Shown here: in pieces, positions 10,303 to 47,298 of the stretch
How positions within the stretch are numbered: the stretch's first letter is position 1
Layout of the letters: each line of letters starts with the position of its first letter
Assembly (NCBI GenBank): GCA_964348675.1
Contig: CAYGDF010000001.1
Coordinates: 7,199 to 55,462 of the forward strand
Direction: 5' to 3'
Origin: an uncultured Candidatus Saccharibacteria bacterium
GTDB taxonomy: Bacteria > Patescibacteriota > Minisyncoccia > Phycocordibacterales > UBA5272
DNA length: 48,264 nt
Notes under the pieces: generated by a model
Databases searched by the model: none
What the model saw: the letters and a program-made list of their open reading frames with translations, nothing else
Told to the model about the DNA's origin: nothing
Program-made: the position numbers and the translations under genes

Positions 10303-10393
10303 AGTGTGGCTACAAATATTTTCCGCCGTCGCTCAAAAATCTCGCAGCCCGCCCCTCGTGGTTTTGATTGCTATCAAAACATCACTGCGGCCC
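10303..10393. repeat. Conserved non-coding element, copy A (homologous to 46943..47034)
   Basis: The core 10325..10389 aligns without gaps to 46967..47031 at 53/65 identities by hand. The 8-bp/4-nt hairpin (10361..10380) differs from copy B only by two compensatory base-pair swaps. Confidence 0.6.
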
Positions 10394-10407
10394 TCCACAA
10401 AGCACAA

Positions 10408-10427
10408 AACCTGCCACAGGGCAGGTT
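10408..10427 (-). terminator. Hairpin terminator downstream of tRNA-Ala
   Basis: The stem is aacctgcc/ggcaggtt. On the minus strand it is followed by TTTTGTGCTTTG, and it lies 13 nt past the tRNA 3' end. Confidence 0.55.
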
Positions 10428-10439
10428 GTTGTGTCTTTG

Positions 10440-10512
10440 TGGACCCTAGGAGAATCGAACTCCTCACCTCCGGAGTGCAAAACCGGCGCTCTACCATATG
10501 AGCTAAGGGCCC
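10440..10512 (-). tRNA. tRNA-Ala (anticodon UGC)
   Basis: Reverse complement: GGGCCCT TA GCTC ATATGGTA GAGC G CCGGT TTTGCAC TCCGG AGGTG AGGAG TTCGATT CTCCT AGGGTCC A. It folds as a cloverleaf with anticodon TGC and the G3:U70 alanine identity pair. CCA is not encoded. Confidence 0.9.
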
Positions 10513-11160: not shown

Positions 11161-11190
11161 AATAAATCCCCAATTAATTGGGGATTTATT
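11161..11190. terminator. Bidirectional hairpin terminator
   Basis: aaatccccaatt/aattggggattt is a perfect palindrome flanked by A/T runs, between convergent genes. Confidence 0.7.
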
Positions 11191-11875
11191 ATTTCCAGAG
11201 ACTGGTTCCAATTTTATCGTCAGCAAATCTGTGGTTTACATCACGGTGTATCATCTCGTCTTTCAGTGTGGCTTTTATTACATCGACTAAACGTGCATCG
11301 CTGTTTAAATTCCAATAACTCTTGGCAAGTTGAGGCGCCTCTACATTTTCATGGATACTATTTTCAATTAATGCTAAGTAGTGTTCATAACTATTAATTG
11401 CTTCTTCTTCAAAGTATCCAACGACTCGGTGGGCCGTGGCTGGAGAAATTAAATACAAAATAAAGTACAAATGGTAAAAGAAAAATTGGACTATAAAAAT
11501 GAGGACCTTTTCAAAAGAGTTCGGTTTTGCTATTTCGCTGTATACCAGTAAATGGATACGTTCGTTTTCTGCTTCGTCCAAAAGAGTTTTTATCCAGCCT
11601 CTATCATCCCTTATAAACCTTAGAGATTTTAAATGTTGAAGTAACCCTCCAACCATTCCTGGCACAGAAGCAATCGTTTCAAGTACCACAGCCCGATGAC
11701 AGTATCTGTTTTGAAACAAAAAATCAGCGCAAGCAGCCGACGCTCGCACTATATTTTTAGCAACAGTATCTCTTACTCCAGACGGAGTGTGTCTGTAACT
11801 TTCTCTATGAGTTCCTATGTGAGGGGTGACTTCTTTCAAGTTCTCAAACATCACTTCGTCCTTTTCGGTTATCAT
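11189..11875 (-). CDS. Alternative oxidase (AOX, di-iron ubiquinol oxidase family)
   Basis: The four AOX iron-binding regions are visible: VLETIASVPGMVGG, AENERIHLL, YFEEEAINSYEHY, LKDEMIHRDVNH. I prefer the ATG at 11875, since the ORF-track start at 11896 is TTG. The ATG at 11851 is also possible. Confidence 0.8.
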   Translation of the reverse strand: MITEKDEVMFENLKEVTPHIGTHRESYRHTPSGVRDTVAKNIVRASAACADFLFQNRYCHRAVVLETIASVPGMVGGLLQHLKSLRFIRDDRGWIKTLLDEAENERIHLLVYSEIAKPNSFEKVLIFIVQFFFYHLYFILYLISPATAHRVVGYFEEEAINSYEHYLALIENSIHENVEAPQLAKSYWNLNSDARLVDVIKATLKDEMIHRDVNHRFADDKIGTSLWK

Positions 11876-11940
11876 AATAGTAAGTATATCCCACAAAGGT
11901 TACTTTTTGGAAGTCTTGTAAATATGATAGAATAAAAGAC

Positions 11941-33556: not shown

Positions 33557-34582
33557 GTGGACTTACCAATCGAAGAATACTACGCTCACGCTCTCCAGAT
33601 GCACGAGCGCGAGTTACAAATACGCGACGAAATTGTTGGGTGGTTGCCCGACGACATCATCGACGCTCACGCTCACTGCAACCTGAAGGAACATGTACAT
33701 GGTGTAGACCCGCGAGCTCGCGGCCATATGCTGTCGACTTTCCCGTATTTCCCACTCGAAATGTCGAAGCAACTTCATGAGATGTTCTTTCCTGGCAAGC
33801 GGATTCGTTCGCTTCGCTTTCCGAAAACATTTCGTGGAATTGACCACCGTTCCGCCAACCAGTATCTGCTTCAGAACAGCCCTGAAGAAGACCGGATCGC
33901 ACTCTTTGGTTTACCGGAAGATGTTGCGTACACCAACGCTATGCTGGCCCATCCGAGAGTGTCCGCACTTAAGATGTACTGGTCGTACGTAGACCCAACG
34001 GCAAAGACAATCTACGAGTTCTTCAGGCCAGAAATCCTTGAAGAGAGTCAAGCGCGTGACATTCCAATAGTCCTCCATCTGCCGCGAGTTTTAGTGGCAA
34101 GCATCAACGACTTGGTGCAAGTCGTAAAAGACTTTCCGCGACAGAGAGTGGTCTTGGCTCACCTTGGCTTGTCCAAGATGGTTATTCAGGGACTGGAGGA
34201 GACAATGAAAACGGCGGCGGCCTTTGACAACGTTTTCATGGACACGGCACTTAACCCTTCGGCAGAAGTTGTCTCGCTCGCACTTAAATGTTTCGGTAAG
34301 GAGCGAATTCTGTTTGGTTCTGACGAACCTCTCAGCCTGATTCGTTCGGTCGCGTACAGACACCCGCAAAAAGGGGAGCGAATCGTCACTGACTTCAAGT
34401 ACCACTGGGTGGACAGCGACGAGGTCAGGGAATACGGGCATCTCGCCCAAAGTGCGACGCACGCTCACTGGCAGTCGATGTTGGCGATAAAGAGGGCTGT
34501 GGAACTTCTTCCTCGAGACCAACAAGAAGTTACCAAGGATTGGGTTTTTCGGAAAACCGCCGAGGCCGTGTATAACTTCTAG
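33557..34582 (+). CDS. Amidohydrolase_2-type metal-dependent hydrolase (TIM barrel), with compositionally foreign GC
   Basis: IDAHAHCN, PIVLHLPR, VLAHLG and FGSDEP motifs. The GTG at 33557 is preceded by GGGAGA 7 nt upstream; the track start is TTG at 33542. Two sampled lines give about 52-53% GC. Confidence 0.7.
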   Translation: MDLPIEEYYAHALQMHERELQIRDEIVGWLPDDIIDAHAHCNLKEHVHGVDPRARGHMLSTFPYFPLEMSKQLHEMFFPGKRIRSLRFPKTFRGIDHRSANQYLLQNSPEEDRIALFGLPEDVAYTNAMLAHPRVSALKMYWSYVDPTAKTIYEFFRPEILEESQARDIPIVLHLPRVLVASINDLVQVVKDFPRQRVVLAHLGLSKMVIQGLEETMKTAAAFDNVFMDTALNPSAEVVSLALKCFGKERILFGSDEPLSLIRSVAYRHPQKGERIVTDFKYHWVDSDEVREYGHLAQSATHAHWQSMLAIKRAVELLPRDQQEVTKDWVFRKTAEAVYNF

Positions 34583-34603
34583 AGACCACTGACCAATAGT
34601 TTT

Positions 34604-34631
34604 AAAGGCTTCGCGTGCGAGGCCTTTTTTT
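34604..34631. terminator. Hairpin terminator
   Basis: aaaggcttcgc-gtg-cgaggccttttttt, between the convergent amidohydrolase and HIT genes. Confidence 0.7.
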
Positions 34632-35097
34632 ATTGTTCTCCTTTAATTTTCTTAGCGAGAGCGCTAAGTTTTTCGTCGTCAGCTCTTAAAAAATCGTGCG
34701 AAGATATGTATCCTTCGTACTTATCAAAATACTTACTTACATTTGACGAACGCTTCTCCCAATCATTTGCCCTAGTTCCATGCATTGGAAATAATTTTGC
34801 ATGAATATGATCAACACCAAAACCTTCAAAGATCATACCTGTGCGACCAACGTCTTCTAATTTTTCATCTAAAAGTTTTGCAACTTTTTTTGTAGCATGC
34901 ACCAAACCATCAATTACACCATCCTCTAAATCAAACAAATAACTGCCATGGTGTTCTTTTGTTATCACGACCGAAAAACCTTCCGTGTTAGGAAATATAG
35001 AGAGAAAAGCAAGATGCTTATCGTCCTCCCAAATTTTATGGCAAGGCGCGTCTCCTTTGGCTATTTTGCAAAAAATACAATCTTCTTTGGTTGTCAT
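34630..35097 (-). CDS. HIT-family protein with a variant triad
   Basis: N-terminal CIFCKI, plus the HIT region GVDHIHAKLFP (H-I-H-A-K, where the canonical third His is Lys). Low GC like the host background. Confidence 0.7.
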   Translation of the reverse strand: MTTKEDCIFCKIAKGDAPCHKIWEDDKHLAFLSIFPNTEGFSVVITKEHHGSYLFDLEDGVIDGLVHATKKVAKLLDEKLEDVGRTGMIFEGFGVDHIHAKLFPMHGTRANDWEKRSSNVSKYFDKYEGYISSHDFLRADDEKLSALAKKIKGEQ

Positions 35098-35206
35098 AAC
35101 CTTATTATAATAGTCTTGTATAAAAAAAGAAAGTCTGGAACATTTATAGTCCAGACCTCGTTCGCTTTGCAGTTTTCCAACTACTTCTCTTTTTAAGACA
35201 AACCCG

Positions 35207-36007
35207 TCAGAGGTTTCGGCTGATTTTCTTTTTTATTGTGTAAATTCCTCCACGAGGAATTTGAAGCATCAGCCTCTCATCTCCCGCCGGTATCTTTCTG
35301 TACACCTTGACGAAATAACTCAGATATTTACCGTTTTCATTGAATAAAGATAGATATCTAAGCCAATTACTTCTGGTGTCTGGGGACATCTGGTTAATGT
35401 ACTGATCAACTCTTGTCTTGTCACCAGGGGAGACCTCATAGTCAGCCTCGTACTCTGTGGTGAGTGGAAGGTTGTTGAACAAATTCGACCAGCTTGCCCT
35501 GTCTCCTTGGGGAGTCAAATTTGTGCCAATTGTTTCGTTGAAATCAGCGACAAGTTTTGGGGGCGGAGTGGAATGGTAGTAGTAAAGCGCTACCAGCATA
35601 TACCCCCACGGTCTCAGCACACGCAACGCCTCAGCAATATGCTGTTTCCTTATTTCTTCGGGAATAAAAGGAAGATGCCCGCCTATGACAACATGACTGA
35701 AGGAATTGTCCTTGAAGGGTAAGTTAGACGCATCTCCCTTCTCGAAAGAAACCTTGTCTGCGATAAAGCGATCAACGTTTTCCTTGGCGGACCTGACGCT
35801 TTCTTCATGAAGGTCCACACCGACACATCTTGCCCCTGTGTAGCGTGCCATTTCGATGGTTATGAACCCCGTTGAACAACCCACCTCGAGAACCGTAGAG
35901 TTTTCGTACATAAAGGAATTCATGGCCCATTCCTTCACGGTCACGTAGCTCCCAGGGGGTGTATTGACTTGGCCAGACCTTGCAACAGTAGACAGATACT
36001 CATTCAT
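35207..36007 (-). CDS. Class I SAM-dependent methyltransferase
   Basis: Motif I VLEVGCSTGFITIEMA and motif II-like CVGVDL. I prefer the ATG at 36007 because AGAGG lies 7 nt upstream; the longer ORF starts at 36058. One sampled line gives about 47% GC. Confidence 0.7.
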   Translation of the reverse strand: MNEYLSTVARSGQVNTPPGSYVTVKEWAMNSFMYENSTVLEVGCSTGFITIEMARYTGARCVGVDLHEESVRSAKENVDRFIADKVSFEKGDASNLPFKDNSFSHVVIGGHLPFIPEEIRKQHIAEALRVLRPWGYMLVALYYYHSTPPPKLVADFNETIGTNLTPQGDRASWSNLFNNLPLTTEYEADYEVSPGDKTRVDQYINQMSPDTRSNWLRYLSLFNENGKYLSYFVKVYRKIPAGDERLMLQIPRGGIYTIKKKISRNL

Positions 36008-36099
36008 TGGATGACCTCTATAAGAAGTTGAAAGAACACGATTTCTATTAGACCACATAAATCATGTTATTATATAAAATGAGATAAAGCCAACTAGAC

Positions 36100-36483
36100 A
36101 TGCAAAAAAAACCTTATAGACCATTTCAAATATCTTGTGGTTTGATGGAAGGCTACGATGCAGAAACAGCCACCTCTCATACCATTGAAGAAGCAAGTGT
36201 AATTATTCAAAACTGGATTAGGGACAGAGTCGTCTCTAATAAAAAGGTGGTGGCTGGGACTCTAATAGAAGGTCAATTTATTTACCCAATAAATAAAAAT
36301 CAAAACCTCAGCGCTCAAATTGAACCATCTTTCCATTATAAAGGAATTGTAAGAGAAGACACCTCTGACGAAGAGGCACTGGAGTTGCTAGAAGATTTAG
36401 TAAAAAATTTATCACAAAAATTAAATCAAAAAAGAATACATATTCAGTTTTGTTCTGATTATTTTTTGTTTGAAAAAGAATAA
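36100..36483 (+). CDS. Hypothetical protein
   Basis: 127 aa, low GC, no recognised motif. Confidence 0.45.
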   Translation: MQKKPYRPFQISCGLMEGYDAETATSHTIEEASVIIQNWIRDRVVSNKKVVAGTLIEGQFIYPINKNQNLSAQIEPSFHYKGIVREDTSDEEALELLEDLVKNLSQKLNQKRIHIQFCSDYFLFEKE

Positions 36484-36486
36484 AAA

Positions 36487-36512
36487 AACTGGGGCAACTA
36501 GGGCCCCAGTCT
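36487..36512 (-). terminator. Rho-independent terminator of the GC-rich aaRS operon
   Basis: On the minus strand the stem CTGGGGC/GCCCCAG is followed by TTTTTTT. It abuts the stop codon of the low-GC gene 36100..36483. Confidence 0.7.
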
Positions 36513-36531
36513 CGACTCAGCCCGCTGGCAT

Positions 36532-37839
36532 TTACGGCGTGAGCCGGTTCATGCCACGGTAGAGGTAGGTGACTTCACGCACGTTCGGACGTCCGAGCAT
36601 GATCATCAGCAGTCGCGTCAGACCGATGCCACAGCCACCGTGCGGAGGACATCCGTAGCGGAAAAAGTTGAAGTAGTGCTCGAGCGGACCGTGGCTGAAA
36701 CCGCGGTCGGTGGCCTGAGCCTTCAGCTTTTCGTAACGATGCTCGCGCATCGCACCCGTCGTGATTTCGATTCCGTTCCACAGCAAATCGAAACTCATCG
36801 TCAGGTCAGGGCGATCTTCATGCCGCATGTGGTAGAACGCTCGCACCTCGGTCGGGTAATCGGTCACGAAAACGAATTCGTGACCGAACTCTTCCTTGAT
36901 GTAGGCGCTCAGCATGCGCTCGCCTTGTGGGTCGAGATCCTCCTTGTGGTTGATGAAGTGCCCGCGTTCCGCCAACACCTCCCGCGCCCGTGCCAACGTG
37001 ATGCGCGGGAAAGGAGTTGTCGGCACCACCACGTTGACTTGAAAGGCCTCCTTGATGGCTTCACCGTGCTTGGCGGCAACGATTGCCATCATGTGCCCGA
37101 TCCAGTTCTCCTCCACCTGCATGACGTCCTCGTGGGATTCGATCCACGAGATTTCCATGTCGACGGAAGTGAACTCGGTGTCATGCCGTGACGTCATCGA
37201 CGGGTTCGCCCGGAAAACCGGGCCGATCTCGAAGATGCGGTCGAAGCCGGCGGCCATCGCCATCTGCTTGTAGAACTGCGGCGACTGGGCGAGATTGGCT
37301 GTCCGGCCGAAGTACGGCAAGGTAAACAACTCCGCGCCGGACTCACTCGCCGTGCCCATCAGCTTCGGGGAGTGGATTTCCAGGAACCCTTCCTTCTCCC
37401 AGAATCCCCGCATGGCGATTTCCATCGTGGTTTGCACCTGGAAGATCAGCAGGTTCTTGGGCTCGCGCAAACTGAGTTGGCGCCAGTCCATCTGCTTCTC
37501 GAGCGAGGATTCCGCGGTGACCGGAAGCGGGGCTTCCGCGACACTGTGGACTTCCACGGACCCGACTTGAATCTCCAGGCCGCCCAACTTCACGTTGGGC
37601 GCTTCGACGACGAGCCCCTTCACCGTCACGGCTGAACCAGGTGTCAGTCCGCTGATGATCGATGAAAGGGCGGCGCCCTCGTCACTCTTCGGATGCACGG
37701 CCTGCACCTTTCCGGTGCGGTCTTGCAAGATGAGGAACTGCATCCGTTTCTGGTCGCGGACGGCGTCCACGAAACCTTTCACGGAAACAACTTCTCCGAG
37801 GCAGCCACTCAGGCTGCAAATCCAAGTTCTCTGTTTCAT
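36532..37839 (-). CDS. Class IIb aminoacyl-tRNA synthetase, archaeal-type AspRS-like
   Basis: N-terminal OB fold (GFVDAVRDQKRMQFLILQDRTGKVQAV). Motif 2 is GPVFRANPSMTSRHDTEFTSVDMEISW, with Asn where the fRxE Glu is usual. Motif 3 is GGCGIGLTRLLM. GGAG lies 6 nt before the ATG. About 60% GC. Confidence 0.75.
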   Translation of the reverse strand: MKQRTWICSLSGCLGEVVSVKGFVDAVRDQKRMQFLILQDRTGKVQAVHPKSDEGAALSSIISGLTPGSAVTVKGLVVEAPNVKLGGLEIQVGSVEVHSVAEAPLPVTAESSLEKQMDWRQLSLREPKNLLIFQVQTTMEIAMRGFWEKEGFLEIHSPKLMGTASESGAELFTLPYFGRTANLAQSPQFYKQMAMAAGFDRIFEIGPVFRANPSMTSRHDTEFTSVDMEISWIESHEDVMQVEENWIGHMMAIVAAKHGEAIKEAFQVNVVVPTTPFPRITLARAREVLAERGHFINHKEDLDPQGERMLSAYIKEEFGHEFVFVTDYPTEVRAFYHMRHEDRPDLTMSFDLLWNGIEITTGAMREHRYEKLKAQATDRGFSHGPLEHYFNFFRYGCPPHGGCGIGLTRLLMIMLGRPNVREVTYLYRGMNRLTP

Positions 37840-37859
37840 GACTTTCTCCGGTAACTGAA

Positions 37860-39176
37860 TTAAGGGTAGACCCGGCGACGCACCACTCGTGGGAATGGAA
37901 TAGCGTCACGGACGTGGGGGATGTTGAGCAACCAACGAATCAGCCGTTCGAGTCCCATGCCGAAGGCGATATGGGGAACGCAACCGGCGTGATGAACATC
38001 GCGGACAAACTGATACCTCGGTTCGGTGAGCTTGCCCTTTTCGTCGAGCCGCTCGTCCAGCATCTTCGGATCGTGGATTTTCTCCGCGACGCCCAACAGT
38101 TCTCCGTAGCCATTGCTGGCGATCAGATCGGCCACCATCGTCACTCGCGTGTCGTTGGGGTCAATCACGTACGGGAACGGCTCGACGGCTCGTGGTATTC
38201 CCACAATCCAGAAGGGGCTCTTGTAAAGCTTGGACAGGATTTCTTCCTCAGACGTGCTGAGGGCTTGTCCGAACTTTGCGTCGAGACCCTGCTCTTGCAG
38301 ATACTTCACGGCATCCTCGTACGAAATGCGCGGGAAGGGCGTTTTCAGCCCATCCAGGCATAACTGGGTGCCGAGCGTGCTCATGATGCCAGGGCATCGT
38401 GCCTGGCATTCTGTGGTCACGTAGCCGAGGATGTCTTCCACCAGTTTGATGATGTCCTCACGGTTCCCGAAAGCGACCTCGGCCTTGATGTGCCAGTACT
38501 CCATGAGGTGGCGCTTGCTCCGCGACTCTTCACCACGGAAGCTAGGCCCCATGTTGAAGATCCGTTCGAAGGCATGCACTCCGGCCTCCAGGTAGAAGCC
38601 GGCACACTGGGAGAGGAACAGGTTCTCATCGTGCACGTTGATCGACATCGCTGTCTTTCCGTCGTAGAGCGGTGTCGGCGTGAGGATCGGCGCATCGAAT
38701 TCCATGAAGCGGTTCTTGTAAAACCACTCACGGACGATACGCATCAACTCAGCACGAAACTGGAGAACCGCCATCACCTTCGGGTTGCGAAGATAGATGT
38801 GCCGGTAGTCGAGCATCTGGTTCGTGTGACGTTCGTCAAACGGATCGAAGTTCGACCGTGGCTGAGGTTCCAGCCGAAGCGTGGCCTTACCCAGCACCGC
38901 AAAGTTACTTGCGTGGAGTTCGTTCTCTTGCCCGTTTCGCCGAGAAAGGTTTCCGTGTATCTCGACACCCGACTCGAGCGGCACCGTTGACGCCAGGTCA
39001 AATTCATCTTCAGAAATCGAGGACTTCTGGATGACGACCTGGATGGTGCCAGTTGAGTCGGAAATATCGAGAAAGATTATTTTTCCTTGTCGCCTCCGAT
39101 GTTTGAGCCACCCCATAAGAGTAGCTGCCCCACCAGGATTCGCAGCAAGGAAGTCGGTAACAAAGAGCGTCTTCAT
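37860..39176 (-). CDS. Class IIb aminoacyl-tRNA synthetase, AsnRS-like
   Basis: OB fold (GWLKHRRRQGKIIFLDISDSTGTIQVV). Motif 2 is GPSFRGEESRSKRHLMEYWHIKAEVAF. The C-terminus is VPHIAFGMGLERLIRWLLNIPHVRDAIPFPRVVRRRVYP, an AsnRS-type ending. It lies 20 nt upstream of the AspRS-like gene. About 62% GC. Confidence 0.75.
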   Translation of the reverse strand: MKTLFVTDFLAANPGGAATLMGWLKHRRRQGKIIFLDISDSTGTIQVVIQKSSISEDEFDLASTVPLESGVEIHGNLSRRNGQENELHASNFAVLGKATLRLEPQPRSNFDPFDERHTNQMLDYRHIYLRNPKVMAVLQFRAELMRIVREWFYKNRFMEFDAPILTPTPLYDGKTAMSINVHDENLFLSQCAGFYLEAGVHAFERIFNMGPSFRGEESRSKRHLMEYWHIKAEVAFGNREDIIKLVEDILGYVTTECQARCPGIMSTLGTQLCLDGLKTPFPRISYEDAVKYLQEQGLDAKFGQALSTSEEEILSKLYKSPFWIVGIPRAVEPFPYVIDPNDTRVTMVADLIASNGYGELLGVAEKIHDPKMLDERLDEKGKLTEPRYQFVRDVHHAGCVPHIAFGMGLERLIRWLLNIPHVRDAIPFPRVVRRRVYP

Positions 39177-39426
39177 GTCACTTTCCTTCCATTGGTTAAC
39201 ATGGGCGACATGCCCGACTTGATACTACAATCATAATCGCACTTTGTCAAAAAAATATTTAATCAAAAATCGAGTAAAATAACACGTATTTCAATCAGAA
39301 ATATCAATTTATTTTCATAAAAATATATCACTAAAATTGTGTGACAGCTCTCTGAAAAAGTTGGAACAAATTTATAAATAGGATAGGATACAACCATCTG
39401 TTCGTCATAAAACAAGGAGTAAAGTT

Positions 39427-39672
39427 ATGGTCTACAAGACCGTCCCGCAATTGGGCATCACGATTTCCGTGAAGCCCTATCGAAAAAGCCGTGGAATGAA
39501 AGGCTGTGGACGTGTAGGAAGCACTGGCAAGAAAGCCTACATCACAAAAGCAGGGGAGGAGACGGTCACCATCAAGGGTGACTCGTTCAAACACCTCTGC
39601 CAGCAGATTCGTGAGCAGTTCAAGATTCCGCCGAGTGTCACCATCAACTCCTCGGGCGAGACCTACGTCTGA
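39427..39672 (+). CDS. Small basic hypothetical protein (81 aa), GC-rich, divergent from the aaRS operon
   Basis: AAGGAG lies 7 nt before the ATG, and the gene has its own terminator. MVYKTVPQLGITISVKPYRKSRGMKGCGRVGSTGKKAYITK... I recognise no family. Confidence 0.65.
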   Translation: MVYKTVPQLGITISVKPYRKSRGMKGCGRVGSTGKKAYITKAGEETVTIKGDSFKHLCQQIREQFKIPPSVTINSSGETYV

Positions 39673-39689
39673 GTCAGTCCGCCATCGCC

Positions 39690-39719
39690 AAAAAAGCCCG
39701 TTTCGGCGGGCTTTTTTAT
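39690..39719 (+). terminator. Rho-independent terminator
   Basis: aaaaaagcccg-tttcgg-cgggctttttt. Confidence 0.8.
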
Positions 39720-39769
39720 TTGGTAAAAGTTGGGACGAAGTTGAAACAGAATTAGTAAGAAATTCTTGC

Positions 39770-40027
39770 TTAGTTTAGTGGGTAGATTTTATTAAGTTCA
39801 GGTTCTTCGGGGTACTCAGCGTGATGCTCTTTTACGTCTTTCCAGTCTATTGCATTTATAACGGCATCACCTGTACAACCTTCGTATGGACACATTTGTA
39901 ATACATCATCCATTTCTGAAGTCATTACATGCTTAAAATTACCACTTTTATAAACTCTTTCACAGTGCATACAATACAAATAACCATTACCACTTACCTT
40001 CCCAAAAATATATTCTCTCTCATTCAT
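39770..40027 (-). CDS. Small zinc-ribbon-like protein
   Basis: CMHC ... CPYEGC (CxxC plus CxxxxC). 85 aa, low GC. Confidence 0.5.
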   Translation of the reverse strand: MNEREYIFGKVSGNGYLYCMHCERVYKSGNFKHVMTSEMDDVLQMCPYEGCTGDAVINAIDWKDVKEHHAEYPEEPELNKIYPLN

Positions 40028-41044: not shown

Positions 41045-42268
41045 ATGAATGATATAAAAATAATTAAAAATCAAGAAGACTATCGTAACGCTCTCAATTT
41101 TGTCGAGCAGATTATTGATCGTGATCCAGAACCTGGAACTGTGGACTCTGATCATCTTATTCTTCTTACTGCACTCATAAAAGAGTATGAATCAAAAGCT
41201 TATCCAGAACATTTGCCTGACCCAATAGAAGCAATAAAATTTCGCATGGAACAACAAAATCTTAAACCTGCGGATCTTATACCTTACATTGGTAGTGCAG
41301 GTAGAGTTTCTGAAGTGCTTTCTGGAAAGAGACAGCTTACCCTTGATATGGTTAGGGCTCTTTCTTCAGGCTTGGGAATTCCAGCAAAAGTACTTATACA
41401 AAAACCGTCGCGAGATTTTGAATCTCAAAATTGGGATACCACGCTTGTAAAGACAATGCAGAAACGCGGTTATTTCGGCAAAAACTCTTTAAAAGATCAA
41501 AATAAATCAGAACTAATTAGTGGTTTCTTTTCTTCATTTGGACAACTCCAACCCGCCGCTTTATACCGAAAAACAAATTTTCGATCAGCACCTCGTACAG
41601 ATAATAATGCTCTACTTGCATGGGGTATTCGTGTGTTGGAGAAAGCGTCTAAAATAAAAGTTTCCACAAAGTACAAAAAGGGAACAGTTGATTTATTTTT
41701 TATGCGTGCAGCAATAAAGTTAAGTTCAAAAGATAATGGGCCTCTTCTTGTCCGTGATTATCTCGAAGAGTATGGTATTAAATTAGTTATTGAGCCACAC
41801 CTCCCTAAGACTCATCTTGATGGTGCTGTCTTGCTGTTTGATAAAGATAATCCAGTGATAGGTCTTACAATCCGTCATGACCGACCAGATAATTTTTGGT
41901 TTACGTTAATGCATGAACTTGCTCACGTAGCGCTTCACTACGAGGATGACGTTGAATCCTTTTATGATGAAGGACTTCAAGATAAAGATGGTGTGGGAGA
42001 TGACCCTAAAGAAAAGGAAGCTGATCTTCTAGCAGAAGAGGCTATTCTTCCAAAAGGTAAATGGGAGACTAGTGCGGCAAGAACAACCCCGAATCAGTTT
42101 TCTACTGAAGACCTTGCAAATGAGTTGGGGATACAGACGGCTGTCATTGCAGGAATGATTCGATTTAAACATCAAAATTTTTACTATTTAAATAAGATAG
42201 TAAATGATAAAAACTTAACCATTAAAAAATATTTTAAAAATGACTTTTTAGAAGAAAAACATGACTAA
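41045..42268 (+). CDS. HigA-like XRE HTH fused to an ImmA/IrrE (M78) metallopeptidase domain
   Basis: An N-terminal HigA-type helix bundle plus HTH (LKPADLIPYIGSAGRVSEVLSGKRQLTLDMVRAL). The C-terminal HExxH is FTLMHELAHVALH. Confidence 0.75.
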   Translation: MNDIKIIKNQEDYRNALNFVEQIIDRDPEPGTVDSDHLILLTALIKEYESKAYPEHLPDPIEAIKFRMEQQNLKPADLIPYIGSAGRVSEVLSGKRQLTLDMVRALSSGLGIPAKVLIQKPSRDFESQNWDTTLVKTMQKRGYFGKNSLKDQNKSELISGFFSSFGQLQPAALYRKTNFRSAPRTDNNALLAWGIRVLEKASKIKVSTKYKKGTVDLFFMRAAIKLSSKDNGPLLVRDYLEEYGIKLVIEPHLPKTHLDGAVLLFDKDNPVIGLTIRHDRPDNFWFTLMHELAHVALHYEDDVESFYDEGLQDKDGVGDDPKEKEADLLAEEAILPKGKWETSAARTTPNQFSTEDLANELGIQTAVIAGMIRFKHQNFYYLNKIVNDKNLTIKKYFKNDFLEEKHD

Positions 42269-43394
42269 TATAATTAAACCTTATGTGCCTGTATTACGTT
42301 GGAGAGCTGCTGAGATGGCAGCAATGGAAAAACTGCTTCCTAACGATAGATCAAATGTTACACCCTTGATCGAGTTCATAATGCCAGCACCCTCAGTTGA
42401 TAAAAAGAATCGTAAAAAAATTTTAAAAACACCTAAAGAGAAGTTTTTAGAGACCCTGCCCAATGTGGCAAAAGATCTATCAAAGTCTTGCGGACAAAGC
42501 CCAGTATTCATTGATGTCCATCTCCTTGATGGTGACATTCGGTCATCTTCCCTTAATCAAATTCTCTCCTCATCAAGTGAACTTAATATATTCTCCATTC
42601 CTGTTACATATGTGATTCCAGTAACAAGTACAGACGCTGATACTGAAACGCGTTCGACTGCAATTAGTTATGCAAAGTCGAGTGGACATGGTTTATGTAT
42701 TCGCATAGATAATTCGCATCTTTCGGAGCCTGATTTAGCTTCTCATTTACTTCATTTTATTAAGAGTAACAATCTCGACATTAAAAATACTGACTTACTT
42801 GTTGATCTGCGATTCATTCCTGATATAGATACCAAAAAAGTAATTGATGAAATTGAAAAACTCCCAAATCTAAAAGAGTGGCGCTCCTTTATTGTGTCTG
42901 GAGGAGTTTTCCCTAAGGATTTGACTGAGTTCGCCGCCGGTGCAGCCTATTCACTTGATCGACTAGATTGGAAATTTTGGAATACAATACGTGAATCAAA
43001 AATAACTCGTGTCCCATCTTTCTCTGACTATACAATTCAGCACCCATTCTATGAATATGTGGCAGCTATTGGCAGTGCAAGTATAAGATATACGGCTGAT
43101 GACCAATGTTGGATTTTCAGAGGAACGAAGCCAGGATTAATTAATCGTAAAACTCAAGAAAAGGGCCCTGGGCGAGAGCAATATATTGGGCACGCAAAAA
43201 CTCTTGTAAAACGAGATTTTTACAAGGGAGATGGCTATAGTTTTGGTGATGCAGAAATTACGAGAATCGCTGACCCCTTAAATACAAAACCGGGTAGTCC
43301 TACTACATGGCTTACGATTGGTATTAACCACCATATAACGCTAGCTGCACGTCAGGCCTCCAACCTTCACGAGAACTCTGAAGAACAGATCTAA
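42261..43394 (+). CDS. Beta_protein (PF14350)/sce7725-like protein (recall-level)
   Basis: The N-terminus YVPVLRWRAAEMAAMEKL...VTPLIEF resembles the Beta_protein family start. It overlaps the upstream gene by 8 nt, so it belongs to the same operon. Confidence 0.4.
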   Translation: MTNIIKPYVPVLRWRAAEMAAMEKLLPNDRSNVTPLIEFIMPAPSVDKKNRKKILKTPKEKFLETLPNVAKDLSKSCGQSPVFIDVHLLDGDIRSSSLNQILSSSSELNIFSIPVTYVIPVTSTDADTETRSTAISYAKSSGHGLCIRIDNSHLSEPDLASHLLHFIKSNNLDIKNTDLLVDLRFIPDIDTKKVIDEIEKLPNLKEWRSFIVSGGVFPKDLTEFAAGAAYSLDRLDWKFWNTIRESKITRVPSFSDYTIQHPFYEYVAAIGSASIRYTADDQCWIFRGTKPGLINRKTQEKGPGREQYIGHAKTLVKRDFYKGDGYSFGDAEITRIADPLNTKPGSPTTWLTIGINHHITLAARQASNLHENSEEQI

Positions 43395-43929
43395 CATGTT
43401 TTTTTAGTGGTTCTAACTCTACTGATTCTGCAATCCTTGCATAGATAACCTCACGAGGTTTTGAACGGATACCATCCGCCTTACCTATGCTTTCTAGTAA
43501 ATCAAGTGCTTCATGTCTCCACAGAAGTCTAGCGATTGATTTATTGTCTTGAGCTGGATTATTTTTAGCCTCTCGAATTGTATTGAAGAAAATTCCACCG
43601 TTCTCACTAGTATGAGCTATTTCAACACCCCACCAATCAGGGATAATTTTAAATGCATCAACAAAGTGTCTACTGCCAACAACGAGGGTCACTTTATCAA
43701 AAACAGAATTATATGCCTCTCTTTGTTCAGGTAAGCGAAGTAGGGTGTCACGGTCGCTTTTGATTTCAAATCCGTGCAGTACTCCGTTTACAACAGCAAC
43801 ATCTATTCTCGCAGCTCCATGACAAAGACCCAACTCCGGAATTACACGATAGTCTGACTGCGCCACATACTCTTCTTTTAGTTTGCTTACTAGAGCTTCT
43901 CTTATTACTGTGTCGTTTGTTTGATACAT
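43324..43929 (-). CDS. PD-(D/E)xK-type nuclease-fold protein, sce7726/MmcB-like (recall-level)
   Basis: IPELGLCHGAARIDVAVVNGVLHGFEIKSDRD carries a D...E-x-K signature. Its 3' end overlaps the convergent gene by 71 nt. Confidence 0.45.
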   Translation of the reverse strand: MYQTNDTVIREALVSKLKEEYVAQSDYRVIPELGLCHGAARIDVAVVNGVLHGFEIKSDRDTLLRLPEQREAYNSVFDKVTLVVGSRHFVDAFKIIPDWWGVEIAHTSENGGIFFNTIREAKNNPAQDNKSIARLLWRHEALDLLESIGKADGIRSKPREVIYARIAESVELEPLKKHVRSVLQSSREGWRPDVQLALYGG

Positions 43930-44093
43930 CTTAATATATAAAAGAGAAATACGTATTTAAATTTTAACATACTTATGAACGCTAGGCATGTTAAAGTTAT
44001 CCCCGTATGACTGGTAACTACAAAATGAATATGTAAAACCTCGTTACCTTTGTAGCTTTTATTTCTTTAAATTTCGGCTTGCATTTTTCTTGC

Positions 44094-44306
44094 CTACAAT
44101 ACACTCTCATAACTATCGCTACTCGTACCGACAATATTTTTGTTATCACTTATTTGCATTAAAAATTGTTGTCGCACCAACTCATCTTTCTTCTCATTCT
44201 CCTTGTTCACTTGGTTAAAAAAATCTCTTCCAAAGAAACCAATCACAAAACTTGCACAAATAGAAAATATTACTAAAAGTGTAATGGCTATCTTATTAAA
44301 ATACAT
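44094..44306 (-). CDS. Small membrane-anchored protein
   Basis: N-terminal TM (IAITLLVIFSICASFVIGFF). I prefer it to the antisense ORF 44140..44424. Confidence 0.4.
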   Translation of the reverse strand: MYFNKIAITLLVIFSICASFVIGFFGRDFFNQVNKENEKKDELVRQQFLMQISDNKNIVGTSSDSYESVL

Positions 44307-44420
44307 CGCAAGGTTTTTAATATTAATAACTGGGGTAGCAAAACACTGCCCTGGAATAGGAACCTTGCGAGTAACCCACTCCGAGTGGCGGAGCTTTTAT
44401 CGCAAGATATTAGAATTTGT

Positions 44421-44603
44421 TTAAATGAAAAGCAATAGACCTCCAACTACAATCATAGGTATTCCTATTACCGCTCCAACGAACGTGAAGCAAAGAAGAG
44501 TACCGAGAATAGCAAATAATAGACCTATTGTTTTTCTAATCGGTTTTAAATATAAAGCCAAAGCCAACAAGATAATACCTATGAGCGCGACCAAAGTTTC
44601 CAT
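44421..44603 (-). CDS. Small two-TM membrane protein
   Basis: 60 aa, two hydrophobic helices. I prefer it to the antisense ORF 44425..44607. Confidence 0.4.
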   Translation of the reverse strand: METLVALIGIILLALALYLKPIRKTIGLLFAILGTLLCFTFVGAVIGIPMIVVGGLLLFI

Positions 44604-44635
44604 ATAAAGTTCAGTATATGTCTAGTTTATTTTTA

Positions 44636-44658
44636 GTACAAGGAGTCTCGGTCATAAA
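44636..44658. repeat. Direct repeat, left boundary of the methyltransferase/HNH cassette
   Basis: GTACAAGGAGTCTCGGTCATAAA matches 46935..46957 (GTACAAGGAGTCTCGGTCACAAA) at 22/23. Confidence 0.8.
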
Positions 44659-44681
44659 CATCAGTTGTAAGGTAAGTACTT

Positions 44682-45785
44682 TTATTTCCCAGATTTTCTT
44701 CTATTGTCCTCTTTACAGAGCATTTTACAATTTTCTGCTACAGTTTTCCCACCTATGTGCCATGGGTCAATATGGTCTGCTTCCATCTCTGAAAACTCAA
44801 AATGGTTTTTACAATCCGAACAAATACCATTTTGTCTTTCGTATGCTTCGCGTCTCATATTTGGATTAAATGCACGAATAGAAAGATAACTTTCTTTTCT
44901 AGTTAACACATATGGATAAATCCCTGATTTTTTAGTCACGTCTTCGTCTTGCATTAGTGTTTTTATTTCTTTTTCTAATTCATCTCCGTCAAATTTTTTA
45001 TCCTTAAATTGATTATAGAGTTCACCCCAATTCACATTTGTCATTTCCTTACGATAAAAAGGAAATGTTTTTCTTACCCAATGAATAACATTTTGAAAAT
45101 ATTTCCATAGTTCGTCCGCATTTTCATCATGCTGATGTTTTGCCATATATTCTTCTACTTGCTCATTATTTATCCACGAAAGTGCTGTTTCTAGATATTC
45201 TTGACGAATTGGGGAGCCTGACACCAACTGACCGCCATCATTTGCCAAAAGATACCCAGCGCAATTTGTTTTACTAAACTTTAGTTTTGCATCTGAGAGC
45301 CATGGGCCAGTGTATACCGCATTTCTTAACTCTTGATTTGTTAATTGTTCTCCTGCAATATTAATAATTTTAAACCAATCAAGTTTTTCTTTATCAGTTC
45401 CTTCACAGTGGTAAATCATGAGTTCATAATTCAAAATTTGCTCTTGTTCTTCTTTGGTTAGATTGTGAAACATTGCAATTCTTCCATTAAATTCAATTGA
45501 AAAATCACCATTTACAAATTGAGCAATACTGATTGTTCGCTGTTGTCCGTCGAGTACTTCAAAATTACCGTCTTCTTTTTTTACCCAGTACATTACATTC
45601 AAAGGAAAATCGTTTTTTATAGTGCGAATAACCTCATCGCGTTGTTTGCCACTGTATACAAATTCTCGTTGATATTTTGGACGAATATCTAATTTACCAC
45701 CAAAAGCACTTACACCTTCTTCGGCGCTGTCTTTATAGTCTTTGACTACATCAGAAACTTTTATTGTGTGTAATTTTATTTCCAT
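44682..45785 (-). CDS. DUF262 (ParB/GmrSD-N-like) domain fused to an HNH endonuclease
   Basis: The DUF262 signature is LDGQQRT. The C-terminal HNH is CSDCKNHFEFSEMEADHIDPWHIGGKTVAENCKMLCKEDNRRK. Confidence 0.75.
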   Translation of the reverse strand: MEIKLHTIKVSDVVKDYKDSAEEGVSAFGGKLDIRPKYQREFVYSGKQRDEVIRTIKNDFPLNVMYWVKKEDGNFEVLDGQQRTISIAQFVNGDFSIEFNGRIAMFHNLTKEEQEQILNYELMIYHCEGTDKEKLDWFKIINIAGEQLTNQELRNAVYTGPWLSDAKLKFSKTNCAGYLLANDGGQLVSGSPIRQEYLETALSWINNEQVEEYMAKHQHDENADELWKYFQNVIHWVRKTFPFYRKEMTNVNWGELYNQFKDKKFDGDELEKEIKTLMQDEDVTKKSGIYPYVLTRKESYLSIRAFNPNMRREAYERQNGICSDCKNHFEFSEMEADHIDPWHIGGKTVAENCKMLCKEDNRRKSGK

Positions 45786-45786
45786 A

Positions 45787-46881
45787 CTATCTTTGTGGTT
45801 TTTTATTTTTAATTAAAATACGTGCATAAGTATTTTTAGATTTTATTAAAGGGCGAGCATCTTTAAATCCTTCTAATTTAGGTATTCCTACTATTTCAGC
45901 GTCATAACCAGCACTTGCTGACATTCCTAAAATTTGGAATTGATTGGGGTTATACTTATCAATAAAAGTAATGGGGACACCCATTACACCATTAAAATCC
46001 GTGGGTATGTCTTGAACTTTTGAAACTTCAATAGCCTCATAATTATCGTACGAAGGATACTCTTTAGTTGTATATTTTTTGTAAAGAGTAATATCTTGTT
46101 TATGCTTTTCAACTTCAAGGTTTGTAAACCAGCACGACGTTGAAACTCTTGCTATTTTGTTTCCATTTTCATTAACATGGTGATATTGTTCCCAATCATC
46201 TGGCACTACAAAAAACATTCCCACATTGAAATTGGTATAACCAGTACGGAGTTTATCATCTTTGATTAATTTAAAAATTTCTTTATAAGTTATTGCGTTT
46301 GTATTTCCTATAATAAGAAATTTTTTATTATATTCTACTAACTGTGTCATATATTCACGAAATAATGAAAACGGTGGATTAGTAATGATAATATTTGCTT
46401 CTTTTAGTAATTCTATACTCTCTTTACTTCTAAAATCTCCATCACCCTCCAGTGGTGACCACTCGTTATTTTTGTTTGCCTTGAGTTGCTCGGCGATATC
46501 ACGCAAATCAAAAGCACCATCACCGTCTAAATCATCAACTTCGTTGATAATAAATTTATTGGCAGTTGCTTTTGGGCGACCTTTTAGCGTACTGAGAGTT
46601 TTATCGTCTCCAAATAATCCTAGTTGAGTATTGGCAATAGGTGATGGCTTGTAACTTGTAGCGATAAGTTTCTTTAAACCAAGAGCGTTAAAATTCGAAG
46701 CAAAGTACTTGAAGAAATTACTTTCAAATGGGTCGTCGCAATTACAATACACCACTTTCCCACGAAATTGCTCTTTATAATGTTTTAACTCTTTTTCAAT
46801 ATCAACAAGTTGGGTATAGAACTCGTCTTTCTTGGCCTTATTGGCTTTATGTAAATTTGAGTTTGATGATGTGTTTGCCAT
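45787..46881 (-). CDS. N6-adenine DNA methyltransferase, EcoRI-methylase-like family
   Basis: KKDEFYTQ, CNCDDP and the catalytic motif ITNPPFS. Its stop is 1 nt from the DUF262-HNH start. Confidence 0.75.
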   Translation of the reverse strand: MANTSSNSNLHKANKAKKDEFYTQLVDIEKELKHYKEQFRGKVVYCNCDDPFESNFFKYFASNFNALGLKKLIATSYKPSPIANTQLGLFGDDKTLSTLKGRPKATANKFIINEVDDLDGDGAFDLRDIAEQLKANKNNEWSPLEGDGDFRSKESIELLKEANIIITNPPFSLFREYMTQLVEYNKKFLIIGNTNAITYKEIFKLIKDDKLRTGYTNFNVGMFFVVPDDWEQYHHVNENGNKIARVSTSCWFTNLEVEKHKQDITLYKKYTTKEYPSYDNYEAIEVSKVQDIPTDFNGVMGVPITFIDKYNPNQFQILGMSASAGYDAEIVGIPKLEGFKDARPLIKSKNTYARILIKNKKPQR

Positions 46882-46934
46882 TTTATTTTGCGGTTACACT
46901 TGTCGGACACTTGAACTATATTCAATTTGGCTGG

Positions 46935-46957
46935 GGTACAAGGAGTCTCGGTCACAA
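46935..46957. repeat. Direct repeat, right boundary of the methyltransferase/HNH cassette; overlaps a copy of the tRNA-Gln 3' end
   Basis: See 44636..44658. In addition, GCTGGGGTACAAGGA at 46929..46943 is identical to 47108..47122, which is the tRNA-Gln 3' end plus 1 nt. Confidence 0.8.
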
Positions 46958-47034
46958 ATCTTTTCATGCCGTCGCCTGAAAAGTTCGCGACCCGCCGCTC
47001 GTGGTTTCGCTTGCTAGCGAAACATCACTGCGCC
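46943..47034. repeat. Conserved non-coding element, copy B (homologous to 10303..10393)
   Basis: It has the same order and spacing of conserved blocks as copy A: GCCGTCGC, CCCGCC, CTCGTGG, hairpin, ATCACTGCG. Hairpin 47003..47022 keeps its pairing through two compensatory swaps. Confidence 0.6.
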
Positions 47035-47035
47035 C

Positions 47036-47078
47036 ATTCGAGTCCTTACGAAAGTGAAGCAGTTCACTTTCTGTACCC
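47036..47078 (+). repeat. Inverted partial copy of the tRNA-Gln 3' end, interrupted by a 22-nt hairpin
   Basis: TTCGAGTCCTT + ac + GAAAGTGAA-gcag-TTCACTTTC + t + GTACCCC. The uninterrupted tRNA reads TTCGAGTCCTTGTACCCC. Confidence 0.6.
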
Positions 47079-47108
47079 CGAAAAGAAATAAGCCTTGCTT
47101 TTTCTTTG

Positions 47109-47179
47109 CTGGGGTACAAGGACTCGAACCTCGATACTCAGGACCAAAACCTGATGTCCTACCATTAGACGATACCCCA
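47109..47179 (-). tRNA. tRNA-Gln (anticodon UUG)
   Basis: Reverse complement: TGGGGTA TC GTCT AATGGTA GGAC A TCAGG TTTTGGT CCTGA GTAT CGAGG TTCGAGT CCTTG TACCCCA G. It forms a cloverleaf with anticodon TTG. Confidence 0.88.
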
Positions 47180-47275
47180 ATATTATTTCTATTCTGTGAG
47201 CAGTTTATGTTTTGAGAGTTTGGTCCTGCTCAGGACCGCTTTCTTTATGTCTCGCAGGCTCGACGCTGATATCCC

Positions 47276-47298
47276 ACCATTAGACGATACCCCAATAT
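47276..47298 (-). pseudogene. Duplicated 5' fragment of tRNA-Gln
   Basis: The exact 23-mer ACCATTAGACGATACCCCAATAT is shared with 47161..47183. No matching anticodon arm, T arm or 3' acceptor strand lies downstream. Confidence 0.7.

Follow-up and report, generated by a model that had tools for sequence, protein, structure and literature searches.

Theta ribozymes, which are minimal HDV-like ribozymes, adjoin phage tRNAs, and an action on the 3′ end of the tRNA has been suggested for them (Kienbeck et al. 2024, PMC10879173). Like the putative RNA of the cassette described here, they are small, structured, protein-less RNAs that lie on the 3′ side of many tRNAs and in the same orientation. Integrative elements that occupy the 3′ ends of tRNA and tmRNA genes, together with derivatives of theirs that have no integrase (CIMEs and satellites), resemble the cassette in another way, as their target runs from the T-loop to the 3′ end and an intact tRNA is retained. 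They also share with it a direct repeat of the tRNA end on the far side and tandem accretion. Complementarity to a target is found in guide RNAs, and TnpB systems derive their guide from the flank of the element itself. A TasR clade with a dead RuvC, linked to stem-loop arrays, occurs in CPR bacteria (PMC12045711). The cassette reported here was found as two copies, A and B, in a 48,264-nt stretch of DNA from an uncultured Candidatus Saccharibacteria bacterium; this whole stretch is referred to as the window. The cassette was not previously catalogued: it has no Rfam match, no associated protein was found, and a full-text literature search returned no description of it.

Results

Two copies of one element in the window

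The initial annotation had reported a non-coding element of about 90 nt beside two tRNA genes, with an ungapped match between its copies at 53 of 65 positions. The number of identities was reproduced, but the register was one base off, and the partner of the copy A segment is 46968-47032 and not 46967-47031. The runner-up 65-mer on either strand of the window reached 32/65 identities, and a pattern of 27 specified bases taken from the conserved blocks matched only two sites in the window, with 0.00 expected from 100 shuffles. Both copies do lie on the 3′ side of minus-strand tRNA genes, which ARAGORN and Rfam identified as tRNA-Ala(tgc) and tRNA-Gln(ttg), and the spacings given earlier, 50 and 77 nt, were correct. 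The central hairpin sequences, with two double substitutions that preserve pairing, were also as described. No reading frame is shared, as had been stated. Only short overlapping ORFs cross the element, and a coding role was rejected because these ORFs have no common frame. The conserved element proved to exceed the segment described earlier, with cores of 81 and 82 nt inside units of about 140 and about 180 nt. Likewise, the different hairpins noted between the element and each tRNA are present but belong to the unit itself (Table 1).

The two cores differ in length by one indel, which falls inside the second hairpin. When folded on the minus strand, which is the strand of the tRNAs, copy A reached −34.2 kcal/mol (z −4.4) and copy B −43.0 kcal/mol (z −4.0), compared with z-scores of −1.7 and −2.5 for the plus strand, so that good folding was confined to the minus strand. 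The copies fold as two hairpins and not as one, and hairpin HP3 also varies between them by compensatory changes; its G–U pairs correspond to C–A on the opposite strand. No promoter-like site was found between the tRNA and the element at either window locus. Four points had escaped the initial annotation, namely the multiple copies in CPR, the tRNA-specific arms, the tRNA-Gln repeat that brackets copy B and the intervening hairpins.

Table 1. Features of copies A and B and of the tRNA genes upstream of them, in window coordinates
Feature	Position	Strand	Evidence or remark
tRNA-Ala(tgc), upstream of copy A	10439-10512	−	ARAGORN; Rfam RF00005, 61.2 bits
Copy A (short form), hairpin HPc	10394-10443	−	Sequence; flagged as hairpin
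Copy A, junction GGGCC	10389-10393	−	Penultimate base paired with the N of CCACGAG-N; pair 11-48 of alignment A2
Copy A, conserved core, 81 nt	10308-10388	−	R1 covariance model, 102.1 bits, E 2e-22; fold
Copy A, hairpin Pa	about 10354-10390, closing pairs included	−	
Copy A, hairpin HP3	10308-10349	−	
Copy A, sense arm X2 (CACAC)	10304-10308	−	Repeats C72-A73-C74-A of tRNA end
tRNA-Gln(ttg), upstream of copy B	47108-47179	−	ARAGORN; Rfam
Copy B, X1, last 20 nt of tRNA-Gln, T54 to G73	47109-47128	−	
Copy B (long form), HP1, weak A/U-rich trailer hairpin	47081-47108	−	
Copy B, X′acc, reverse complement of tRNA-Gln acceptor 3′ strand	47073-47080	−	
Copy B, HP2, 9-bp hairpin, loop CUGC (47059-47062)	47050-47071	−	A4 covariation
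Copy B, X′T, reverse complement of tRNA-Gln T54-U64	47037-47047	−	11/11 complementary to X1
Copy B, junction UGGGC	47032-47036	−	
Copy B, conserved core, 82 nt	46950-47031	−	R1, 112.5 bits; fold
Copy B, core hairpins	Pa 46997-47033; HP3 46950-46992	−	
Copy B, X2, direct repeat of tRNA-Gln 3′ end, G57 to 1 base beyond discriminator	46930-46949	−	

In copy A, the stem of HPc starts inside the tRNA at U70-A73 and its loop, CUGU, occupies 10416-10419. The 5′ strand of this hairpin is X1, made of the tRNA end and the trailer, and the 3′ strand is the antisense arm X′; X2 can pair with GUG of X′, which closes stem P1. In copy B, X′T forms the 5′ strand of P1, and X2 carries two extra nucleotides (AC) at tRNA position 59/60. 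An exact 14-mer of the tRNA-Gln end is found at 46931-46944 and 47109-47122 and at no other window site. This repeat brackets the 178-nt unit and not the defence island downstream of copy B. A third copy of the tRNA-Ala or tRNA-Gln end was not found in the window, and the idea that the copies mark island boundaries was thus not borne out.

Units follow tRNA and tmRNA genes in CPR genomes

The DNA pattern GCAGTGATG-N(14-26)-CCACGAG-N-GGCGGG was run on 185,579 species genomes and gave 32 loci, 31 of them apparently genuine; a match in Euzebya (L030) was rejected as a family member because it arose by chance. The names attached to 25 of the genuine loci are Nomurabacteria, Paceibacterota, Saccharibacteria or Gracilibacteria, and the others have no phylum in their names. 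A metagenome scan added 40 further loci. A covariance model, R1, was built from 29 copies, and its strong matches (E below 1e-10) numbered 85, representing 65 distinct cores that lie nearly throughout on CPR/Patescibacteria contigs. The viral contigs that were scanned held no real copy, with one chance match in G+C-rich coding DNA, and a phage origin was rejected on this ground.

The linkage to tRNA and tmRNA 3′ ends was exclusive and co-oriented. All 48 distinct cores with a tRNA at most 450 nt upstream share the strand of that tRNA, and they represent 27 tRNA species; two other copies (L008 and L020) lie downstream of a tmRNA gene identified by Rfam. The association with tRNA genes noted for the two window copies was upheld. 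The remaining 17 of the 65 distinct cores have no tRNA within 450 nt upstream, and nine of them are within about 210 nt of the locus end. Between the tRNA end and the start of the core are 36-90 nt, in which a terminator-like hairpin often lies. A reverse complement of the tRNA's own 3′ end was found at most 330 nt downstream for 42 of the 74 distinct tRNAs in the collected loci, among them tRNAs followed by units whose cores are of quite another kind, and roughly half of the tRNAs on the same contigs are without any unit. A search of the window and 23 loci with Rfam 15 (4227 models) at the gathering threshold returned only tRNA and tmRNA, and nothing relevant appeared around either copy at E up to 10. 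The element belongs to no Rfam family, in agreement with the earlier failure to match it by eye to tmRNA, SRP RNA, RNase P or 6S RNA.

The core is a conserved three-way junction

The core forms a three-way junction made of the closing stem P1 and the hairpins Pa and HP3, and it is 82 nt long in 27 of 34 copies. Alignment A2 contains 30 predicted pairs, in which 99.1% of the cells are standard pairs, compared with 83% after column shuffles and about 44% when the partners were slid. Changes on both sides were seen in 17 of the 30 pairs, and none of 500 shuffles equalled the observed covariation score or paired fraction. Two G–U pairs at the base of HP3 are invariant, which places the structure on the tRNA-sense strand. 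About 35 unpaired or junction positions are also invariant, comprising GCAGUGAUG, CCACGAG, GGCGGG, a bulged A and UUGUAGCC. The base just 5′ of GCAG (A2 pair 11-48) covaries with the N of CCACGAG-N, as C–G in 15 cases, U–A in seven and G–C in six. When HP2 and P1 were added, in alignment A4, 30 of 47 pairs were compensatory. HP2 accounted for eight compensatory pairs out of nine, with 96.5% of its cells paired, and P1 showed covariation that included G–U pairs. Mutual information over 65 sequences revealed nested pairs only and no pseudoknot.

The earlier proposal of a structured RNA or a bound site, as opposed to a decayed repeat, was strengthened by these alignments, since the stem holds over 29 to 85 copies and a second and longer hairpin appears. 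Several more specific assignments were rejected. GUGAUG was not accepted as a k-turn or a box C/D motif, because the covariation of pairs 17-42 and 18-41 is that of a plain helix. No support was found for a kissing interaction of the CUGC loop with the invariant GCAG: type 2 cores keep CUGC without GCAG, and five type 1 copies lack CUGC. The layouts of hammerhead, twister, pistol, hatchet and HDV ribozymes did not fit the junction lengths by eye, and Rfam was silent on them.

The arms are specific to the locus

Two forms of the unit were distinguished. The long form comprises copy B and about 28 others and reads, on the tRNA strand, X1 from T54, HP1, X′acc, A, HP2, GU, X′T, core and X2. Its HP1 frequently resembles a terminator and continues as a long palindrome that is almost perfect. 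X′ is split into X′acc and X′T by HP2, which has 22 nt, a 9-bp stem and the loop CUGC; X′T is the reverse complement of tRNA T54-N64/65, and X2 is a direct repeat from about position 57. The short form, found in copy A and about 16 others, consists of the tRNA, one long hairpin with the loop CUGC (CUGU in copy A), the core and GUAGC-CAC. Its stem starts at C72-A73-C74, and GUAGC-CAC, which repeats the tRNA end, is present in all short forms. At four related tRNA-Arg short-form loci, the 21-bp stem stays paired with 10 of its 21 pairs compensatory.

The arms were compared with the X1 of their own locus, and this showed that X′T matches at 247 of 259 positions and X′acc at 160 of 207, a count that includes five structurally different copies. 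X2 matches X1 at 174/213 positions in its T part and 99/207 in its acceptor part, often ends at an abrupt breakpoint and often has two extra bases at tRNA position 59/60. The direct repeat of the tRNA end varies between loci from 3 to 24 nt. X′ is the Watson–Crick complement of the tRNA 3′ strand and not a copy of the 5′ strand; in a tRNA-Ala with a G3–U70 pair (L011), X′ carries A opposite U70, and for one tRNA-Arg it carries C opposite G69. Single mismatches in the arms on the sense strand comprised 43 G–U and 4 A–C, compared with 18 G–U when the antisense strand was folded.

The pairings X1:X′ and X′:X2 are mutually exclusive. The minimum-energy fold of the whole copy B transcript had the unit looped out of the T-arm (−112.5 kcal/mol, z −7.9). 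In copy B and about nine other long forms, X′ is able to pair with a full X2; the acceptor part of X2 is lost in most copies, and the short forms have no acceptor-like pairing. HP1 of many long forms and HPc of copy A score as terminator-like, whereas the conserved core does not.

Units stack, exchange cores and lack a protein gene in cis

Units were found stacked in tandem and with swapped cores, and their presence differed between related loci. A complete older unit lies downstream of the newer unit's X2 at L022 and L061, three units follow a tRNA-Pro at L052, and L062 and L070 contain tandem arrays with a 95-nt period. Many units are truncated. Between the two loci L008 and L020, the flanks, HP1, HP2 and X′ hardly vary and the cores differ, and one tRNA-Gly(gcc) carries different core types in related genomes. 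The type 2 core is a short single hairpin, UAGGGGUCGCGA...UUUGUGACC. Other alternative cores are larger and come with an uninterrupted X′, and the arms are common to several core types. In tRNA-Arg(tcg) orthologues, nt 1-56 are identical and the differences are confined to the last 20 nt, where they are tracked by X′ and not by X2. The same form persists at the same tRNA across genomes, for instance at tRNA-Ala loci, with the hairpin kept by compensatory change, and the copies within one genome are well diverged. In the search for near-identical strains, the neighbouring protein of the window loci led to no more than two short contigs.

A protein partner in cis was rejected, as neither the window nor the neighbourhoods of 34 copies contained a candidate. 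Pfam annotation of the whole window gave no transposase, integrase, reverse transcriptase, Nop/Tas or TnpB, and there is no ORF within the 178-nt insert of copy B. ORFs at most 3.5 kb from the 34 copies were clustered all against all, and no protein gene recurred near the copies other than syntenic housekeeping genes, as judged by eye.

Discussion

We favour, with a probability of about 0.45, the interpretation that the element is a non-autonomous cassette inserted into tRNA and tmRNA genes and that selection acts on its co-transcribed RNA. The full-length repeats, the stacking, the core swaps and the alternative cores are the main points for mobility. Against this interpretation stands that no transposase, integrase, reverse transcriptase, Nop/Tas or TnpB gene occurs in the window or recurs near the copies. 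Insertion would occur at the T-loop in the long form, as in copy B, or at the acceptor end in the short form, as in copy A. On the upstream side the 3′ end of the tRNA would stay intact, and on the downstream side a displaced copy of it, X2, would decay. Transcription of the cassette would come from read-through from the tRNA promoter, and the terminator-like HP1 ahead of many long forms would limit this read-through. X′ would pair with the tRNA's own end or with X2, so that the insert would fold as a compact self-contained domain, like a T-loop insertion. The highly conserved core would act as an RNA, possibly as a small ribozyme or as a platform for a universal tRNA-processing enzyme, and might release the cassette from the tRNA precursor, help it to propagate, or do both. 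On sequence grounds, the core might act as a ribozyme, offer RNase P, RNase Z or the CCA-adding enzyme a place to dock, or be a part needed for propagation; the single-hairpin type 2 core is a poor candidate for a ribozyme. A bolder proposal, which we hold to be doubtful, is a new kind of mobile element without an autonomous enzyme, viroid-sized at about 95-200 nt of RNA or single-stranded DNA, in which the core would be a new class of ribozyme or a recombination scaffold. Such an element would home into any tRNA or tmRNA gene at its T-loop or acceptor end, rewrite the last 20 nt of that gene and copy from it a target-complementary arm of its own.

The main point for a host function is that one form stays at the same tRNA over the long term while compensatory change preserves its pairing; together with the divergence within genomes, this suits an old element selected by the host no less than a mobile one. 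The unit would then be a host-owned, immobile cis-acting RNA of the pre-tRNA or pre-tmRNA, either a processing ribozyme or a switch, which we regard as unlikely but credible. As a switch, X′ would sequester the 3′ end of the tRNA up to the point at which the core has folded and X′ is displaced by X2, in keeping with the mutual exclusion of X1:X′ and X′:X2, and the RNA would control 3′-end maturation or quality control, as has been proposed for theta ribozymes and phage tRNAs. Strong purifying selection acts across lineages on about 35 unpaired positions of the core, compensatory change keeps the hairpin at orthologous tRNAs, and tRNA substitutions are tracked by X′. Moreover, tRNA-type 3′ processing also applies to tmRNA, and small ribozymes directly 3′ of tRNAs have precedent (PMC10879173). 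However, the full-length repeats, which reach up to 24 nt and continue past the tRNA end into the trailer, have no obvious purpose in an RNA, and stacked, truncated and swapped units resemble an insertion history. It also fits poorly that roughly half of the tRNAs on the same contigs have no unit, that the same arms occur on several unrelated cores and that the unit is set 36-90 nt away from the tRNA, in many cases beyond a terminator-like hairpin. The structure could instead be one of single-stranded DNA, in which strand-specific pairing with G–T would also hold. Once DNA had been taken up, or on the lagging-strand template, the tRNA-sense strand would fold, the X′:X duplex would mimic the tRNA-gene target, and a host or helper recombinase or an HUH enzyme would act on the fold. 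CTX-type integration reportedly involves a folded hairpin site, and the order X1, body, X′, spacer of about 82 nt and X2 would match the one that such integration leaves. Integrases classically target tRNA and tmRNA 3′ ends, and the irregularity of 2 or 9 nt at tRNA position 59/60 of X2 is recurrent. We nevertheless find a single-stranded DNA recombination structure quite unlikely, as there is no recombinase nearby in the window or the copy neighbourhoods, the duplex lacks the two-arm core-site layout used by tyrosine recombinases, and GTTCGAA does not fit the attC R-box consensus GTTRRRY. The invariant G–U pairs, the RNA-like internal loops and the strict co-orientation with a strong promoter are better explained by RNA.

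The arms could also be guides against the tRNA gene or the tRNA, with X′ and X2 directing an enzyme encoded elsewhere (an IS110-type bridge recombinase, a TIGR-Tas or box C/D-like protein, or TnpB/IscB) and the core serving as a protein scaffold. TnpB guides likewise come from the element flank, the conserved stem-loop HP2 lies between two target-complementary segments of 8-12 nt, and a third segment is complementary to the other strand. A link between the dead-RuvC TasR clade and stem-loop arrays in CPR bacteria (PMC12045711) points the same way. We consider a guide RNA improbable, given that no such gene lies beside any of about 70 loci or in the window, that the arms have no flanking box C (CCA) or box D (UG) motifs, that both X′ segments pair with the same strand and that X′ and X2 pair with each other; the plain-helix covariation of pairs 17-42 and 18-41 contradicts a k-turn in GUGAUG. 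Very improbable, finally, is inert debris in the form of attL/attR scars of integrase-driven islands, extended terminators or a decaying repeat, even though copy B has a defence island on its downstream side, the scores of the hairpins are terminator-like and many units are truncated. The tRNA-Gln repeat brackets 178 nt and not an island, phage contigs have no real matches, and the core has a fixed length of 82 nt, does not vary at about 35 positions and shows compensatory change throughout in dozens of genomes; in our view, the covariation statistics already refute this explanation.

If the insertion cassette is real, roughly half of the tRNA genes in many CPR genomes are trailed by an uncatalogued, conserved structured RNA. 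It could be a new small ribozyme or processing platform, which would change the view of tRNA and tmRNA 3′ maturation in minimal cells, or a new protein-less route by which DNA colonises tRNA genes and overwrites their 3′ ends. It could also be a programmable, target-templated RNA architecture with possible use in biotechnology. The finding accounts for stray partial-tRNA fragments and long palindromes in CPR assemblies, and covariance model R1 is a ready annotation marker for the units.

Comparison with known systems

Non-coding RNAs that share a transcript with a tRNA or tRNA-like structure, as the cassette would, are found in plant tRNA-snoRNA genes, mitochondrial t-elements and MALAT1-mascRNA. 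With regard to tRNA-like signals, X′ and X2 of copy B can form an acceptor-like and a T-like helix with a side arm, but this helix has no T-loop elbow at the measured distance, and copy A has no such helix. Segments complementary to the insertion site are a feature common to the cassette, the EBS/IBS of group II introns, the TnpB omega RNA, the IS110 bridge RNA and tigRNA. The guides of the cassette differ in that they pair with each other and with the RNA of the upstream gene, and in that a hairpin splits the guide; an intron core, an adjacent protein and box motifs are lacking. No DEDD or Nop gene of the kind that accompanies the IS110 bridge RNA or tigRNA was found in the window or recurrently near the copies, the X′ segments are contiguous and address one strand, and they have no CCA/UG flanks. 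Group I and group II introns were set aside because there is no Rfam intron match and the upstream tRNA is intact.

The possibility that the element is the terminal part of a known MITE or IS200/IS605 family was also discounted, because the features that define these families were absent. In a MITE, the inverted segments belong to the element, whereas those of the cassette copy the local tRNA, and the direct repeat is variable at 3-24 nt. In contrast to IS200/IS605 ends, PATE and the TnpB omega RNA, the target is duplicated and no TnpA or TnpB was found in the window or recurrently among the ORFs near the copies, and HP2 and HP3 are unrelated in sequence. The attP(+) site of the CTX phage and the attC site of integrons share with the cassette the inverted target-like repeats around a structured spacer, the strand-specific folding and the hybrid repeat at the other end. 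However, the cassette has no IntI and, by inspection, no R″/R′ boxes (RYYYAAC / GTTRRRY). The spacer is variable in attC and highly conserved in the cassette, and it is the arms of the cassette that change with each tRNA.

The two closest systems differ from the cassette as well. Theta and other HDV-like ribozymes are separated from it by the absence of an HDV-clan Rfam match at E up to 10 and of pseudoknot covariation. A theta ribozyme abuts the tRNA and cleaves at its own 5′ end, whereas the core of the cassette starts 36-90 nt past the tRNA. The cassette further has tRNA-complementary arms and a repeated tRNA end, and it resides on CPR chromosomes and not on viral contigs. As for integrative elements, the direct repeat that flanks the insert in an attL/attR pair is present in the cassette (the 14-mer in copy B, up to 24 nt elsewhere), but the insert of 178 nt holds no recombinase gene, and none was found in the window or recurrently near the copies. 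The cassette thus conforms to the definition of neither theta ribozymes nor integrative elements, nor to those of MITEs, IS200/IS605, IS110/TIGR, attC or introns, so we rate it, with its putative function, as outside the known kinds. Compared with integrative elements, it is small, at 135-200 nt, places one core behind at least 27 tRNAs, and combines an inverted copy of its target with an RNA-type fold.

Core types and variation among cassettes

The antisense arm, the downstream direct repeat of the tRNA 3′ end (X2) and the CUGC hairpin also occurred with a second core type, a single hairpin of ~47 nt, UAGGGGUCGCGA...UUUGUGACC. Additional core types, in which the antisense arm was uninterrupted and the core measured ~150 nt, were found behind tRNA-Asn (locus L003), tRNA-Leu(taa) (L023), tRNA-Thr (L027) and tRNA-Gly (L029). 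At two loci the cassette lay 3′ of a tmRNA gene (Rfam RF00023) instead of a tRNA gene, and there the flanks were near-identical whereas the cores differed.

The short-form core was also seen in tandem arrays with a 95-nt period, joined by the linker CAC-AA-GUG-CCGACC, and the HP3 hairpin loop of one unit carried a 23-nt insertion. Other cores had a net insertion of 27 nt between the GGCGGG block and HP3, where the 30-nt sequence UGAUUAGUAAAUCAUGCCGNGAGGCCAAAG replaced CUG and probably forms an extra hairpin.

Behind one tRNA-Pro gene we found a "solo" state, in which a terminator hairpin preceded the reverse complement of the acceptor strand, and the CUGC hairpin, the core and the repeat were all missing. 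This state is either an intermediate or the product of a deletion. A recurrent irregularity of X2 was the presence of two extra bases (AC, AT, CA or CC) exactly at tRNA position 59/60, as in copy B of the window and in L023, L010, L001, L061, L052 and L025, and the repeat behind the L029 tRNA-Gly had nine extra bases at the same position. These bases may mark a joint or may be a functional bulge.

Features of the window and of cassette loci
Sequence	Position	Feature
Window	11189-11896	Alternative oxidase (AOX), E 4e-70
Window	34000-40000	G+C-rich patch
Window	36532-37839, 37860-39176	Paralogous class II aminoacyl-tRNA synthetases (Asp/Asn/Lys type) in tandem
Window	41045-46881	Defence-type island
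Window	41045-42268	IrrE/HTH pair
Window	42261-43394	"Beta protein"
Window	44682-45785	GmrSD_N+HNH nuclease
Window	45787-46881	EcoRI-family adenine methyltransferase
Window	46930-46949	X2 of copy B
Window	47221-47238	G+C-rich hairpin
Window	47276-47298 (minus)	Partial tRNA-Gln copy
L001	4457-4546	Second core type, tRNA-Lys
L004		Second core type, two tRNA-Met
L023	3535-3660	Second core type, tRNA-Cys
L031, L044, L054		Second core type
L008	3247-3351	tmRNA cassette
L020	2157-2260	tmRNA cassette
L062	1-460	Tandem array
L070	13640-13975	Tandem array
L011	7211-7341	Core with insertion
L025	4891-5021, 5300-5430	Cores with insertion
L018	4966-5020	Solo state

Genomic surroundings in the window

Copy B is followed immediately downstream by the defence-type island, which no tRNA-Gln repeat brackets. 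About 95 nt upstream of the genuine tRNA-Gln gene is a 23-nt partial copy, comprising the first 19 nt of the gene and 4 nt of its upstream flank, with a G+C-rich hairpin between the two. The partial copy may be a pseudo-tRNA or the leftover of another rearrangement at tRNA-Gln.

The G+C-rich patch (45-52%, vs ~37% elsewhere), which contains the two synthetase paralogues, looks like horizontally acquired DNA. Apart from AOX, the host genome looks like CPR/Paceibacterota, a fermentative group in which AOX is unusual.
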